A stretch of 64,000 bases of DNA from Isurus oxyrinchus (lineage: Eukaryota), in contig JANJGN010000007.1 of the NCBI GenBank assembly GCA_026770705.1, positions 68,944,001-69,008,000 of the forward strand. The letters run 5' to 3'. Positions 46,823 through 61,265 of this stretch are shown one piece after another. The notes below the pieces were generated by a model, which was given only the letters and a program-made list of their open reading frames with translations, made no database searches and was not told where the DNA came from. The first letter of the stretch is position 1. Each line of letters begins with the position of its first letter. The position numbers and the translations under genes are program-made.

Positions 46823-47946
46823 ATGGCAATGTTTAAGAGTTAAATACAATAATAGTAATCTATCAAAATCAAATAAGATCCTCTGTATTTTGTGCTTTTT
46901 GTACATTTGTGTCAACTTGGAACGTTCCTGATTGTTCAGTTGAAAAGAGCTAGGAGCACATCTAATGATATTGTGAATAAGTACCAGAAGCTGACTGAAA
47001 GAAGGATACCATAGTTGGGCTGTGTTGTTTACTGCTCTTTTAAGACCAAATCACCAAACAGCTGTTCATGCTTCTCAAAGAAATGGTAGTTCAATGCCTT
47101 GAGACCTTTAGTAACACATCTACATCACCTTAACAGATGGCTTCGCTGAATCCTTGAATAGCATTTTGTAGTATTTTTCTTATTTTTTATTAATTGAAAT
47201 TCCTAGAGCAAATACCTACAGTTATGTTTTATGGTACATGTGCAGCTTGAAAAAGGTTTAGTCAATATCTCCACATTATATTTGTGCTGAAGTAACCAGC
47301 AAACTGTGTACAGAATGAAGCTTGTGAAACTTATAATCTCAGGAGCTCCAGTAAAAGTTGCAGATTCAAATATTGTTCACATGAGGAACAACATGGTGGA
47401 CGGCCTCACTTTATACTCGTGATCTGCATAATGCTATGGAATAAATGAGCAGGGAAGAGGACAATATATGAAAGTTCAAAAGGCAATTAAAATAGATGCA
47501 TTTTTGGAACATGACAGGACTGAGGCATGTTCTGAGAAGACCAGTAGCTAGCTCTAACTTATCAAAAAGCAAAGAGTTTGTTGGGACTTTTAGTCTTTTA
47601 TTCCTTCTAGAAATTCTTTCTGCACCTGTTTAGTGGTGAACAATAATGAATGCAAGCCCAAATCTTCCAGTCTCCGCATCATTGGACCACTCATTCACTG
47701 ACCCACACTCAAAGACTCGACCTTTAAACTTATGAGATATAATACAGCAGCTAGTGCCATAAAAAGGGAGGGAATGTCTTATCGTCTCCCAATTCTATTC
47801 CAGAGGCCGCTGCGTATTTCTCTGACCGCCAGGATCAGAAGCAGCATTGGGTCAGGAGAATCTTACGCGCAGTAGCAATGTGCCTAGCATTGACACTACT
47901 CACAGGTTTCAGGCTAAAAAGTTCAAATGGGATGCTTTGATTATAA

Positions 47947-49530
47947 AACAAAAACAGAATTACCTGGAAAAACTCAGCAGCATCGGCGGAGAAGAAAAGA
48001 GTTGACGTTTCGAGTCCTCATGACCCTTCAACAGAACTGAGTAAATATTAGGTTGGGGGGGGGGGAGAGAGAAGTGGGGGGGGGGGGGTAGTAGGGACAA
48101 GCAAGCAGTGATAGGAGCAGATAATCAAAAGATGTCACAGACAAAGGAACAAAGAACTGTTGAAGGTGGTGATATTATCTAAACGAATGTGCTAATTAAG
48201 AATGGATGGCAGGGCACTCAAGGCACAGCTCTAGTGTGGGTGGGGTGGAAAGACTAGCAGGGCATACAAGATTTAAAAATAATGGAAATAGGTGGGAAAA
48301 GAAAAATCTATATAAATTATTGGAAAAAACAAAAGGAAGGGGGAAGAAATGGAAAGGGGGTGGGGATGGAGGAAGGAGTTCAAGATCTAAAGTTGTTGAA
48401 TTCAATATTCAGTCCGGAAGGCTGTAAAGTGCCTAGTCGGAAGATGAGGTGCAGTTGCTCCAGTTTGCGTTGGGCTTCACTGGAACAATGCAGCAAGCCA
48501 AGGACAGACACGTGGGCAAGAGAGCAGGGTCGAGTGTTAAAATGACAAGCGACAGGGAGGTCTGGGTCTTTCTTGCGGACAGACTGCAGATGTTCTGCAA
48601 AGCGGTCACCCAGTTTACATTTGGTCTCTCCAATGTAGAGGAGACCGCATTGGGAGCAATGAATGCAGTAGACTAAGTTGGGGGAAATGCAAGTGAAATA
48701 CTGCTTCACTTGAAAGGAGTGTTTGGGCCCTTGGATGGTGAGGAGAGAGGAAGTGAAGGGACAGGTGTTGCATCTTTAGCGTGGGCATGGGGTGGTGCCA
48801 TAGGAGGGGATTGAGGAGAAGGGGGTGATGAAGAGTGGACAAGGGTGTCCCAGAGGGAACGATCCCTACGGATGCCGCCATGGTGGGGTGAAGGGAAGAT
48901 GTGTTTGGTGGTGGCATCATGCTGGAATTGGTAGAAATGGCAGAGGATGATCCTTTGAATGCGGATGCTGGTGGGGTGATAAGTGAGGACAAGGGGGACC
49001 CTATCATGTTTCTGGGAGGGAGGAGAAGACGTGAGGGCGGATGCGCGGGAGATGAGCTGGACACAGTTGAGGGCCCTGTCGACGACCGTGGGTGGAAAAC
49101 CTCAGTTAAGGAAGAAGGAGGACATGTCAGAGGAACCGTTTTTGAAGGTAGCATCACCAGAACAGATGCGACGGAGGCGAAGGAACTGAGAGAATGGGAT
49201 GGAGTCCTTACAGGAAGCGGGGTGTGAGGAGCTGTAGTTGAGGTAGCTGTGGGAGTCGGTAGGTTTGTAATGGATTTTGGTGGACAGTCTATCACCAGAA
49301 ATTGAGACAGGGAGGTCAAAGAAAGGAAGGGAAGTGTCAGAGATGGACCATGTGAAAATGATAGAGGGGTGGAGATTGGAAGCAAAATTAATAAATTTTT
49401 CCAAGTCCCGACGAGAGCATGAAGCAGCACCGAAGTAATCATTGATGTACCGGAGAAAGAGTTGTGGAAGGAGGCCAGAGTAGGACTGGAACAAGGAATG
49501 TTCCACGTACCCCATAAAGAGACAGGCATA
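47947..49530 (-). mobile_element. Penelope-like element, left arm (RT end, GIY-YIG, 3' terminus)
   Basis: YACLFMGYVE..FLRYINDYFG..LPFFD..YKPTDSH (PLE RT) and NLVYCIHCSQCGLLYIGET..RFAEH (GIY-YIG). Confidence 0.95.
47997..48040 (-). ncRNA. Minimal type I hammerhead ribozyme (variant core) in the PLE left arm
   Basis: Reverse complement: agtt CTGTTGA a gggtc-atgag-gactc GAAA c GTC aact, giving stem I, stem II, GAAA and a GUC cleavage triplet. Confidence 0.7.
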
Positions 49531-49660
49531 TGCAAATTTATTTATTAACTACAGCTCCTCACACCCCGCTTCCTGTAAGGACTCCATCCCATTCTCTCAG
49601 TTTCTTCGCCTCCGTCGTATCTGTTCTGATTATGCTATAATCAAAAACAGTTCCTCTGAC

Positions 49661-50410
49661 ATGTTCTCCTTCTTCCTTAACCGAGGTTTTCCACCCACGG
49701 TCGTTGACAGGGCCCTCAACTGTGTCCGGCCCATCTCCCGCGCATCCGCCCTCACACCTTCTCCTCCCTCCCAGAAACATGATAGGGTCCCCCTTGTCCT
49801 CACTTATCACCCCACCAGCCTCCGCATTCAAAGGATCATCCTCCCCCATTTCCGCCAACTCCAGCATTATGCCACCACCAAACACATCTTTCCTTCACCG
49901 CCCCCCCCGGCGGCATTCTGTAGCGATCGTTCCGTCAGGGACACCCTGGTCCACTCCTCCATCACCCCCTTCTCCTCAACCCCCTCCTATGGCACCACCC
50001 CATGCCCACGCAAAAGATGCAACACCTGCCCCTTCACTTCCTCTCTCCTCACCATCCAAGAGCCCAAACACTTCTTTCAAGTGAAGCAGCATTTCACTTG
50101 CATTTCCTCCAACTTAGTCTACTGCATTCGTTGCTCCCAATGCGGTCTCCTCTACATTGGAGAGACCAAATGTGAACTGGGTGACAGCTTTGCAGAACAC
50201 CTGCGGTCTGTCCGCAAGAAAGACCCAAACCTCCCTGTCACTTGTCATTTTAACACTCGACCCTGCTCTCTTGCCCACATGTCTGCCCTTGGCTTGCTGC
50301 ATTGTTCCAGTGAAGCCCAACGCAAACTGGAGGAACAGCACCTCGTCTTCCGATTAGGCACTTTACAGCCTTCTGGACTGAATATTGAATTCAACAACTT
50401 TAGATCTTGA
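49661..50410 (+). pseudogene. PLE ORF remnant: RT thumb/linker plus GIY-YIG endonuclease (249 aa open)
   Basis: PLVLTYHP, CPRKRCNTCP, NLVYCIRCSQCGLLYIGET, EHLRSVR, HFN, RKLEE..LGTLQPSGLN; 5'-truncated. Confidence 0.9.
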
Positions 50411-50786
50411 ACTCCTTCCTCCATCCCCACCCCCTTTCTGTTTCTTCCCCCTTCCTTTTGTTTTTTCCAATAATTTATATGGATTTTTCTTTTCCCACCT
50501 ATTTCCATTATTTTTAAATCTTGTATGCCCTGCTAGTCTTTCCACCCCATCCCCACTGGAGCTGTACCTTGAGTGCCCTGCCATCCATTCTTAATTAGTA
50601 CATTTGTTTAGATAATATCACCACCTTCAACACCTCTTTGTTCCTTTGCCTGTGACATCTTTTGATTATCTGCTCCTATCACTGCTTGCTTGTCCCTAGA
50701 ACCACACCACCCCACCCCCCACTTCTCTCCCCCCCCCACCCCCACCTTAAACCAGCTTATATTTCACCCCTCTCCTAATATTCACT

Positions 50787-50826
50787 CAGTTCTGTTGAAG
50801 GCTCATGAGGACTCGAAATGTCAACT
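50787..50826 (+). ncRNA. Minimal hammerhead ribozyme (variant, more decayed) in the PLE right arm
   Basis: cagtt CTGTTGA aggctcatgaggactc GAAA tGTC aact. Confidence 0.6.
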
Positions 50827-52165
50827 ATTTTCTTCTCCGCCAATGCTGCCAGACCTGCTGAGTTTTTCCAGGTAATTCTGTTTTTGTTTTGGATTTCCAG
50901 CATCCGCAGTTTTTTGTTTTTATCTCTTGCTTTAATTATAAGTTAGTTACAAAGTTAGTTGCCATTATATATTACACCAGTGTTATTATGGCACAGCGCA
51001 TTAGAACTAATACTACTGAAATAGGAAAAGCCAGATGAAAAGCACATGAGGGAGAAAGGAATAACGATTATGCTGATGGGTTTAGACAAAAAATGGAGGG
51101 AGGAAGCTTGTGTAGAGGATAAACGTCAGCATAGACCTGCTGGGCAGAATGGCCTATTTCTGTGTTGTAAAAAAATTCTACTAGATATTGATGCAGTTAC
51201 AACTCAACATGGTTAATCCTTGGTCCCAGGCACCAAGTATTGAGAGGCATTCTTCACAAGAAGAGAGGCAATTGTATATGGAAAGTTTCCAGAGACCAGA
51301 TTGGTACACCTCCAAATGGCTGGTTACACAACAGCATTGGTAGAGTTCTGTTGCTAGGTCACCTGTGCATTTGTTCAGTGAGGGATGATACAGGGACTTC
51401 CTGTCTTGAAATGCTTTTATGCTCTTGCTTTCCAAAGAAAGCATATTTTATAGTCTGCCTTTTTCTGGGGAAGATATAAATGTGACTGTAGAATTCAATC
51501 AGGTCTTCTGATGTTTCAACAAGAAACTACTATCCTACTCACCTACTCAGGGTAGATTTGACAGTGGGGGAGAGGGAGGACAATCTCTTTAGAAACTAGA
51601 AAAAAGATTTACAATTTTTTTGTTTGGCCTCAGGATGAGGATGAAACTGAAATTTACTGACCAGCCAGCCGTAAGAATGTTGCGTTTGGCTGCCTTCTAG
51701 TGACTGTTATTGCTCAGCCACTTCAAAGGGCATTAAAAGTCAGGCACATAGTATAGTACTGGGGTGACATGTAGGGCAGATCAGGTAAAAATGGCAAATT
51801 CCTTTCCAAAAAGGACATTGATTCAAATAATTTGATTTTTACCGTAATCCAACAAAGTCACTTTTCTTTAGCCCAAAAACTGTGCTTCATCTTATCCTTG
51901 TAATCTGTAATCCTGTGTATAGCAAGATTTTTGGACTACTTCTTTGTAAAACAGCTAATCACCAGATCTTGTCTTGGTGGGCAATCTCAGGGAAATTATA
52001 GTAGGATATAATAGTGTTATGGTTATGATATTTGCCTCGTAGCTTAGAAGTTATGACTTCAAATTCTATCTTGGCAAGTTGTGCAATTAAACTTTATAGA
52101 TTTGATAATTTGTGAGAAGCAGTTAACTAGGTCAAATGGGCCACAAAAATGGGAAATACCCATAG

Positions 52166-58110: not shown

Positions 58111-59774
58111 CCACTTCCCATCCTGTACTCACTACTGGATAGCCCATTGGCAGGTTAAGAGAGTAAATTGTGATGCACTCTTTGTATGACTGTTAGAAAT
58201 AGTTGATTAAGACAGCTGTTTCAGAACAGTAAATTAAAGTGATTGGCCATTAATTGCATGGAACAGAATGCAGTAGTTTCCAACGCTAGTTAGAAAACTG
58301 CAAGAAAAGCCCGGTACGAGGCAGATATTTATTCAGAAATAAAGTCACGTATGGCAGAAATGACTGCACCAACACTAATTCTGCAATCTGTACATGGGGA
58401 ACTTGCAAAAAATATTCATGCATAAGCGATTTATTTATTTGTTAAGATTTCAAAGCTACACTAATGCATTAAAATGCATCACTTTTTATAATTCACCATT
58501 TTGAACACAGTTTTGTTTTCAATGCAATAAATGATTTTTCTTGAAGTTGCATTCACATCCTGAAAAAGTGATCAGCATGTTTTTCCTTATTCAAGTGATA
58601 CAATGTGATGACATAAGTTGGATTTAAGTGTATAATATTGACACTTTCAGAGGATGCAGTTATGAGAAAAGCAGAAGATATTTTAAGAGGCCCTGCCTCC
58701 CCAAGCAAATGAAGTTTTGCCAAAGAGTCTCTCAGGGAGCCAGCATCGCATTAAATCTGGGCCTCTACAAAGGATTATTACCTTAATAATATTTTTTATG
58801 ATCCCTGTTACCTTAATCGTATTTGCCTGTTGACTGGCTTTTTAATATCATTGTTCAAATGAAGTAGATAAGGGTAATTCAGACAGAACATGAATAAAAA
58901 TGCAGCATTGCCTGAGTAAACATATAGTCCTGTTATGTTGAATCTGCTTTTTTGAAATTGGCTTTCCTCCAGTTGAGCATGTGCACATTGCCTTTTCTTT
59001 TTTTCTATAAACTAATCTAGTGATATTGTAATAACTGTTTAATAAATGCTCTCATACCAAAACATGCTTCCTCTCTGCTCCCCTCCTTTCCCGACTAAAA
59101 CATGCTCCAATTACTCCACTTACTTCACCAGAACTAGATCCAGCATTGCTTCATTATTCATTGGGCTGAAAACATACCAATCAAGAAAGTTCTCTTGAAC
59201 ATGTTTCAGGAATTTGTTCCTATCTTTGCCCTGATATTTTCCTAGTGTGTATGAGGATAGTTGAAGCCCCCATTATCACTGCTGTGAAGTTCTTGCATCT
59301 TTCTGCAATTTTCCTGCAAATTGACTTCTCAGTCTCCTTTCCGTGATTTGGTGGCCTGTAATCACCCAGAAGCATAATAGCTCGTCTATTGTTCTTTAGT
59401 TGTAACCAAATAAATTATTTATTTGAATTCTAAAGTAAATCACCGCCTTTTGGTGTTGGAACAGCATCTTTGATCATTGCAATGCCCCCTCCTCCTTCAT
59501 TCTCTATCTTTACTGAATGCATGGTGGTCAGGAATATTAAGTGTCCATTCCTTTCCTTGTTTGAGTCAGGTCTTCATTATTGCCACTATATCATAATCCC
59601 GGGATTACTTGTGCCTGCAGCTCCCCAATTTACTTATCACACTCTGGGCATTTATGCACACGCATAATAAAGCCCACTTTAGTCTGCCCTCCATTTGATC
59701 ACTCCCATTTCTGAACTGCTCTTTATTCCAATGCCATTTACCTCTCCTGGAGCTCCATGCCCTTGTATTTCCTC

Positions 59775-60580
59775 AGGCTTGGCCTAAATAGCCAAGTGGT
59801 TATGGTACTGGGCTTGTAACCCCAAGATCAAGAGTTCAAATCTCACAATGGCAAACTATGTATCAATGTAACTTCATCTGAATAGGAACAGATGGAAACG
59901 TGTTTGTACTCGAAAGAGTTACATTTTGGTGGCTCCGTAGCTCAGTGGTTAGAGCACTGGACATGTAAACTAGTGGTCGTGAGTTCAATTCTCACTGAGG
60001 CCTCTAGCTACAATTTATGGGGCTTGGCCTAAATAGCCAAGTGGTTATGGTACTGGGTTTGTAACCCCAAGATCAAGAGTTCAAATCTCACAATGGCAAA
60101 CTATGAAACAATGTAACTTCATCTGAATAGGAACAGATGGAAACATGTTTGTAATTGAAAGAGTTACAGGTTTTAGTGCTGGTATTTTTGGGGCTTGGCC
60201 TAAATAGCCAAGTGGTTATGGTACTGGGTTTGTAACCCCAAGATCAAGAGTTCAAATCTCACAATGGCAAACTATGAAACAATGTAACTTCATCTGAAAC
60301 AGATGGAAACGGGTTTGTACTGGAAAGAGTATCAAGAGGGGCTTGGCCTAAATAGCCAAGTGGTTATGGTACTGGGTTTGTAACCCCAAGATCGAGAGTT
60401 CAAATCTCACAATGGCAAAAAAAAACTATGAAACAATGTAACTTCATCTGAAACAGATGGAAATGGGTTTGTGCTCGAAAGAGTATCAAGAGTTCAAATC
60501 TCACAATGGCAAACTATGAAACAAATGGAAATGTGTTTGTACTTGAAAGAGTTACAGCACAAACCGTGAATGTAAAGACT
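59775..60580 (+). mobile_element. Concatemeric tRNA-Thr-derived retro-insertion (4 near-full units of ~140-148 bp, 1 partial unit, 1 tRNA copy) flanked by a 12-bp TSD
   Basis: Units at 59776-59923, 60021-60168, 60192-60330, 60340-60484 and partial 60485-60556. TTGTATTTCCTC occurs at both 59763-59774 and 60581-60592. Confidence 0.9.
59931..60003 (+). tRNA. tRNA-Thr(TGT) copy, probably a pseudogene
   Basis: 73 nt GGCTCCG-TA-GCTC AGTGGTTA GAGC-A-CTGGA CATGTAA ACTAG-TGGTC-GTGAG TTCAATT CTCAC-TGAGGCC-T, close to vertebrate tRNA-Thr-TGT. Has an acceptor C-A mismatch, an anticodon-stem A-A mismatch and U33 replaced by A; no CCA. Confidence 0.85.
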
Positions 60581-61265
60581 TTGTATTTCCTCTCTAATGC
60601 TTCATCCTGTTGCCTCTGCACCTATTAAATTAGTTTAAACACTTCCTTGCAGTATTAATTAACCTCCATGCAAGGACATTGGTCCCAGCCTTGTGAGGTG
60701 CAGTTACTTTCTAGGGCTGTTTAAAGGCACACAGCATGGCTGAGGTAGAGTAGAGTGAACTTAAGTCTGCATACAGTATATGCCACATGTGACCTCGGGT
60801 GTATCAATAATTTTGAAGGTGTTCTAACCCTTTGCGCTGACTTCATTATAACAAGTGGAAAAAATCAGTTTGAAAGTTAAAGTATTTATAATATCTTCCC
60901 ATCTGCTGGAGGAAAATAAACCACCAACACTTACGTTAATTGTGGGAAACAATTAGTCAGCAGATTCCTAGCACCTTCCTCTGCATCAAACATGGTAAAT
61001 TTTCCTTACAAAACATGTTATCAAAGTGCCTGGTATTTGTGTGGACTGCAGTAATTCGAAGGATTTTGGGGGTATTTTCATTAGCACTTTGACAATTAAT
61101 TTTCTAAATTTAGTTACCTAAGATTGGCAGGAGCAGCTTGCTGCTAATTAAAGCCTTGTTTTTGTCCTTTTTATATATTTTCTCAAAGTGTTGCTACATC
61201 AAGATTATTAATATGTTGCCTCCAGCTGTTATCCTATCCTACAGGAACAATCATGCCATATTTTA

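Follow-up and report, generated by a model that had tools for sequence, protein, structure and literature searches.

The tRNA-Thr(TGT) found inside a SINE array in a 64,000-nucleotide stretch of the Isurus oxyrinchus genome (hereafter the window) is probably a copy of one defective tRNA-Thr gene on contig C26, bounded by its leader and its likely Pol III stop and held within a single SINE insertion, which a Tx1-type LINE reverse transcriptase would have made from the unprocessed transcript by jumping end-to-end between templates. The inserted stretch (59775-60580, 806 bp) contains SINE units arranged head-to-tail, and the array and its borders are laid out as follows:

59763..59774, + strand: left target-site duplication, 12 bp; the same 12 bases stand at 60581-60592, and organism B has one copy
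59776..59923, + strand: SINE unit 1, with a tRNA-Thr-derived head and a hairpin tail (by sequence comparison)
59924..59927, + strand: TTTT, from its sequence the likely terminator end of the unit-1 transcript
59928..59930, + strand: 5' leader of the pre-tRNA; GT as in the source, the first G as in the sister locus L004 and not as in the source locus L002
59931..60003, + strand: defective tRNA-Thr(TGT) copy without CCA (ARAGORN, RF00005 and comparison with the source at C26:1718742)
60004..60018, + strand: 3' trailer ending in TTTAT (60014-60018), a weak Pol III terminator of the T3VT type (comparison with the source; terminator class from PMC3141230)
60019..60168, + strand: SINE unit 2 (by sequence comparison)
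60169..60189, + strand: trailer with a terminal T5, from read-through of a SINE copy on C1 (pattern present here and at C1:209431865 only)
60190..60337, + strand: SINE unit 3, ending where an internal repeat starts (by sequence comparison)
60338..60556, + strand: SINE unit 4 with internal partial repeats (same form in L233)
60557..60580, + strand: read-through trailer of another SINE source (recurs on C3 and C12; missing from the empty site)
60581..60592, + strand: right target-site duplication, the 12 bases of 59763-59774

ARAGORN places tRNA-Thr(TGT) at 59931-60004, its sole tRNA call in the 64-kb window, and Rfam RF00005 matches 59931-60003 over the full model (49.6 bits, E 1.3e-7). Both programs and the sequence itself agree with the original prediction of a complete 73-nt tRNA-Thr(TGT), without CCA and preceded by GGT, and the tRNA and its trailer lie, as it had claimed, between units 1 and 2 (59776-59923 and 60019-60168). 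Completeness holds for the length of the copy but not for its state, as this is a defective variant with five departures from the majority gene type (position 31 T>A, the invariant U33>A, 41 C>T, 44 G>T and 68 G>A), broken pairs at 31-39 and 5-68, and a poor fold (z of -0.79 versus -2.88 for an intact paralogue). The U33>A change, the two mismatched pairs and the weak fold rule out a functional tRNA-Thr(TGT) gene. The trailer as first quoted is present but too short, since the match to the source continues 3 nt beyond it to 60019, a G compatible with both the tRNA source and the SINE head. The leader measures 2-3 nt and the trailer 15 nt; the T3VT motif is reported as a weak terminator for human Pol III, with TTTAT among the weakest (PMC3141230). 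A tailless retropseudogene is ruled out on two grounds: the full body and 15-nt trailer are present rather than a copy 3'-truncated within the RNA, and the tRNA has no duplication of its own.

The array is missing at the orthologous site in the related organism B, where contigs in 3/3 runs (three studies) pass from 59760 through three letters to 60581 with a single copy of the duplication; 59775-60580 is therefore an insertion. The three letters read ACC, although they come from a mixed consensus of 3 contigs (agreement 0.64-0.69) and are suggestive only. No internal copy of the 12-bp duplication was found inside the window array, and the flanks of the insertion match none of the compared loci. 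An assembly artefact is unlikely, given that the tRNA copy differs from its source at 4/91 bases and that the site is empty in organism B. The left array junction is contained in a contig of an organism-A run, which may come from the very sample that was assembled; among the contigs listed none spans the tRNA junctions.

The best other place for the tRNA copy is C26:1718742 (L002), which is 96% identical over 91 nt (the best of 40 scored of 273 candidates in a DNA search). The match spans 59929 to 60019 with 4 differences, and L002 has the same five departures from the majority gene and the same trailer. In the 4.98-Gb genome a diagnostic 17-mer spanning the altered anticodon arm is found twice, in the window and at L002 (control 0), so that a source locus with the same trailer does exist. 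L002 is part of a DNA-duplicated segment of at least 3 kb that is 78-92% like 27 of the 28 other Thr loci; none of the flank of this segment was carried into the window, and no SINE unit was found within 40 kb around L002. The window copy begins 2-3 nt before the tRNA and stops at TTTAT, though the L002 segment extends on, and such limits without duplicated flank point to the limits of a transcript rather than to DNA breaks. The window tRNA very probably came through RNA from the C26 gene or from a lost twin of it. A conserved upstream box about 45 nt 5' of the tRNA is common to the dispersed tRNA-Thr segments L002-L030 except L026. Both single sources that could be pinned (Thr on C26; Lys on C35, L245) are sequence variants, and the copies captured from them stop at TTTAT and not at T4; aberrant pre-tRNAs may be captured more often (n=2).

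The remaining spacers of the array can be followed in a similar manner. Only one other genomic place, C1:209431865, has the spacer that follows unit 2; there it is made up of a SINE copy's right duplication and the adjoining flank as far as T5, beyond which the flank continues. The SINE at C1 has an internal repeat that is absent from unit 2; C1 can therefore be the source of the unit-2 trailer only if this repeat has been either gained or lost. Arrays on C3 and C12 carry the 24 nt that precede the right duplication, again behind this form of unit; on C3 these 24 nt are followed by the 7 bases with which the right duplication of the window begins. This overlap is likely to be the microhomology used for priming, and pairing of the RNA end with the target by 7 nt would account for a window site without the usual TAC of the family. 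Exact TAC-starting duplications are present at 19/47 loci tested, and with 18 of these 19 measuring 13-17 bp the 12-bp duplication of the window, which lacks TAC, is atypical.

The SINE itself is abundant, its head 19-mer having 18,928 exact matches in the genome (control 0), and among the 55 clusters listed on C1, 20 of the first 40 contain more than one head. Its tail folds as two hairpins (z of -4.2), and its heads score about 30 bits with RF00005. As originally claimed, the unit heads align to the same tRNA type as the window tRNA (71-72% over 58 nt). The head scores 79 with intact Thr(TGT) genes, 70 with the window copy and 59 with the best isotype not derived from Thr (Lys), in a comparison that included no Gln, His, Gly, Trp or true Val or Cys gene. 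By these scores the head derives from the Thr(TGT) type, which makes this a tRNA-derived SINE (SINE2). The further idea that the progenitor type and its derivative occur side by side stands only in part: the type is that of the head (79 vs 59), but the window copy lies farther from the head than intact Thr genes do (70 vs 79), which on sequence grounds identifies it as a passer-by and not the progenitor of the SINE, and of the 19 tRNA loci found with a motif common to Thr and Lys, 12 are Lys and 2, the window included, are Thr. That a Thr tRNA should stand beside a Thr-derived SINE is likely a coincidence.

LINE pieces are interleaved in the arrays, and the best of 6 matches is to Xenopus Tx1 ORF2 (39%, E 5.8e-84). 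Their RT region is 57-61% like Tx1 and a Pfam zf-RVT match falls below the cutoff, the Tx1 assignment being one from protein matches to LINE pieces. The LINE shares the terminal hairpin and target bases with the SINE (L197, L201, L032, L039), while the native LINE end (L197, L201) has only the short terminal hairpin in common with it. From these shared features a Tx1-type LINE likely moves the SINE. A variant of the LINE ends in the last 97 nt of the SINE including the B box (L035, L039, L049, L053, L054, L056, L082, L084), and a preferred target inside another repeat is common to SINE and LINE (L036, L044, L047, L048, L072, L147, L168, L183, L197, L200, L203, L211, L217, L228). Unrelated arrays have certain unique trailers of truncated SINE copies in common (L041, L049, L144, L223, L227; L191, L210), marking active source loci. 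Also seen were inverted units resembling twin priming and a compound locus in which several pre-tRNA-Tyr copies occur together with 5S (L042, L055, L074-L077).

The window tRNA is not a fixed part of the family. It is present in 0/29 other family loci, which were chosen by likeness to unit 2, and a genome-wide search for a Thr-type T-arm followed by the exact SINE head gives 1 match, the window only. With the 17-mer at 2 places, these counts rule out a composite SINE subfamily with a fixed tRNA module. Taken with the existence of a source that has the same trailer, they favor the claim that an unprocessed pre-tRNA was co-mobilised with the SINE.

Sister arrays contain a wide range of other Pol III RNAs, as the original prediction had proposed to look for: pre-tRNAs of at least 12 isotypes, 5S and U6. 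A search for the SINE tail followed within 5-35 nt by an A-box 8-mer common to Thr and Lys gives 26 matches at 22 loci, 19 of them tRNA (control 0). By manual reading these 19 loci, found with a Thr/Lys A-box motif, comprise at least Lys 12, Thr 2, Phe 2, Tyr 2 and Ala-like 1, the two Thr-type captures being the window and L067. A T-loop followed within 12-42 nt by the SINE head gives 81 matches (control 0), of which 64 loci were examined and 17 matches left out as repeats in the same array, SINE self-matches or loci already counted; this search adds Glu, Ser, Asp, Asn, Arg, Pro, Ile and more Lys, Tyr and Ala, as well as other SINEs. An iMet capture comes from the C1 sample. Introns are kept in the captured Tyr, Arg(TCT) and Pro copies, and no spliced copy of these was seen among the examined loci. 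Several captures are chained: SINE-U6-preIle-SINE (L175), U6-prePro-SINE (L164), 5S-preAsp-SINE (L133) and SINE-prePhe-preArg-SINE (L128). Three further sources were checked, and for 3/3 the captures are bounded like the window copy: the Tyr capture has a 7-nt leader, keeps its 18-nt intron and ends inside T5, three Pro captures begin at the same base and end in the T-run, and the Lys capture (98%) ends at TTTAT as in the window. Pre-tRNAs were captured at 3/40 C1 loci and 0/29 unit-2-like loci, or 3/69 (~4%, 95% interval 0.9-12%), which extrapolates to some hundreds of captures genome-wide from about 10,000 loci (55 clusters per 100 matches). Clustered tRNA-Pro genes with an intron of about 18-20 nt are present at L235-L237 and L240-L243 (C37, C40, C50), with tRNA-Pro captures at L155, L164, L167, L179, L238 and L239; among vertebrate tRNAs with introns, Pro is unusual. 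Pieces of about 100 nt without a match to any Rfam family at the gathering score were captured at L070/L071 (1511-1620) and L186.

Junctions between tRNA and SINE head carry the marks of transcript ends. TTT lies at most 7 nt from the head at 43/51 tRNA junctions versus 4/53 junctions with host DNA (p 3e-16; background for the TTT window 12.6%), leaving 8/51 tRNA-to-head junctions without TTT, and an added CCA is found at 0/51. The 51 junctions were hand-picked, one per locus, with other-SINE, self, duplicate, unidentified and headless cases left out. Among 11 further Thr/Lys A-box loci 5 have no head nearby and 3 of the 6 others end in TTT, as does the L064 junction, which stands outside the 51 counted. 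The target motif shows the reverse distribution, TAC preceding the head at 2/51 tRNA junctions and at 38/53 host junctions (p 9e-14), which rules out SINE insertion next to tDNAs as the origin of the tRNA-SINE junctions; of the two with TAC one is the window, through a base that differs from L002. A single duplication encloses tRNA and SINE in 6/14 other arrays tested, and the other 8/14 have no exact duplication. An extra A or AA is present at 10/43 RNA-RNA junctions and 3/19 RNA-DNA junctions, a weak hint that both junction types form during copying.

A single target-primed event, read from right to left, most likely produced this arrangement. Synthesis of cDNA would be primed by the nicked target, paired over 7 nt with the SINE read-through transcript of units 4-5 at its U-rich 3' end. 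On reaching the 5' end of an RNA the enzyme would add some bases without a template (mostly A in related enzymes), and these would pair with the next free Pol III transcript at its U-ending 3' end, so that any U-ending nuclear Pol III product might be accepted as template and mostly-A addition would itself select such transcripts. The jumps would lead to unit 3, to unit 2 with the C1 trailer, to the pre-tRNA and to unit 1, with a final jump to the target DNA. L1 ORF2p is reported to form concatemers by template jumping in vitro (PMC10830420), and for R2 untemplated bases, mostly A, are described as needed for jumping (PMC8857657), although L1 chimeras in cell assays are there attributed to preligation.

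The same RNAs might instead have been ligated before copying, by an RtcB-type activity, and then copied in one pass. RtcB requires a 5'-OH plus a 3' or cyclic phosphate, and the captures start at a fixed leader base, as expected of primary transcripts with a 5'-triphosphate. Ligation predicts the same sense and the same end-to-end order, is the reported route for U6/L1 chimeras (bioRxiv 2025.02.02.635956; PMC8857657), and U6 is among the captured cargo; against this, the window array would require four successive ligations, and similar extra bases appear at RNA-DNA junctions, where no RNA ligase acts, albeit in small numbers. From DNA sequence alone the two routes cannot be told apart completely, yet on these points we regard prior ligation as unlikely. 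Re-creation of the array from a SINE that once stood in the tDNA trailer, with read-through from the tRNA promoter carrying both (5' transduction), is very unlikely. The window trailer does have TAC at the usual target distance, and some Tx1 families are described as target-specific (PMC4494074), but there is no SINE in the 40 kb around the C26 source, the diagnostic motif has no third genomic copy, no unit is followed by the second copy that insertion into the trailer would leave, the trailer of unit 2 traces to a locus that is not a tDNA, TAC stands at only 2/51 such junctions, and the SINE upstream of the tRNA is left unaccounted for.

Units and tRNA might also have arrived by separate insertions at a regenerated target, as described for tandem SINEU-3 (PMC4494074), and the target duplication does recur between units, often at the same length, in many sister arrays (e.g. 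L032, L056, L223, L225). Such recurrence reflects either re-insertion or, within a single event, new priming once the target overhang has been copied by the enzyme; from the number of these arrays, re-insertion probably also shapes this SINE family. For the window, with neither an internal duplication copy nor one of the tRNA's own and with spacers that are traceable trailers, separate insertions are slightly more remote again than 5' transduction. The least probable explanation is that the tRNA-Thr was recruited specifically by its likeness to the SINE head: the head is derived from Thr(TGT) and two captures are of Thr type (window, L067), but Lys outnumbers Thr by 12/19 to 2/19, the junctions are end-to-end and outside the homologous part, and the unrelated 5S and U6 are captured too.

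The window family works like the U6/L1 chimera and differs in scale, cargo and chaining. Chimeras of U6 or other small RNAs with LINEs are ascribed to template switch, with double and triple cases known (Doucet et al. 2015, PMC4476161; Law and Burns, bioRxiv 10.1101/2025.02.02.635956), and as in U6/L1 a whole small RNA lies in sense 5' of the retroelement with one duplication around both (PMC4476161). The window array has the enclosing duplication, the empty site and the sense 5' small RNA bounded by transcript ends. Human tRNA/L1 chimeras (21 loci) are reported as mostly half-length and antisense (bioRxiv 10.1101/2025.02.02.635956), whereas the shark captures are whole and in sense, keep leader, trailer and intron, lie between SINE units, are chained, and occur at ~4% of sampled loci. 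The crocodilian SINEU-1/2/3 (Tx1-Mar; Kojima 2015, PMC4494074) resemble the window family in their Tx1-type partner, a preferred target in another repeat, tandem copies that sandwich the duplication, and repeated 5' additions ascribed to template switch or jump; however, SINEU heads and additions are U1/U2 pieces, and the accessible text of that paper reports no pre-tRNA, 5S or U6 cargo and no terminator-bounded chains. Tailless retropseudogenes (Noll et al. 2015, PMC5322556; Schmitz et al. 2004 cited there) are likewise LINE-made tRNA copies, some of them unprocessed, and are primed when the end of the RNA pairs with the target, which would hold for the rightmost RNA of the window as well; unlike these 3'-truncated single RNAs with their own duplication, the window tRNA reaches its terminator and has none. 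Serial jumping by R2 and L1 in vitro also joins separate templates into end-to-end concatemers with the help of untemplated bases (PMC8857657, PMC10830420), but its physiological role is doubted (PMC8857657), and the window family would be a frequent in-vivo case for Tx1. Blood clam SINEs form direct arrays with as many as 15 units, in some cases from more than one family (PMC11481361); there unequal recombination between duplications is invoked and host tRNAs were filtered out. A literature search, with Repbase, Dfam and most subscription papers outside its range, found neither this SINE nor arrays of whole pre-tRNAs described.

In vivo, non-LTR reverse transcriptases may jump from one RNA to another or may copy RNAs that were ligated beforehand, a question described as open (PMC8857657); with natural multi-RNA junctions that number in the hundreds and have traceable sources, and with a candidate enzyme, this family makes it testable. 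From the sequence patterns, we lean towards the view that a Tx1 reverse transcriptase routinely jumps serially end-to-end in the germline nucleus, and that the genome would thus keep hundreds of nascent Pol III transcripts as full-length fossils (pre-tRNAs complete with leader, intron and trailer, along with 5S, U6 and SINE read-throughs), which record start sites, weak terminators and the transcription of defective tDNAs, in an assembly line that places new Pol III promoters before a mobile SINE tail. Introns kept in the captures imply that templates are recruited in the nucleus; for an animal in which such data are lacking, the copies chart where germline Pol III starts and stops, and they show how new SINE heads arise. 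Annotation of tRNAs in the Isurus oxyrinchus genome will count captured copies as genes. Elsewhere in the window, an inverted repeat of 1.3 kb with 91% identity and a 300-bp spacer occupies 47945-49239 and 49547-50890.
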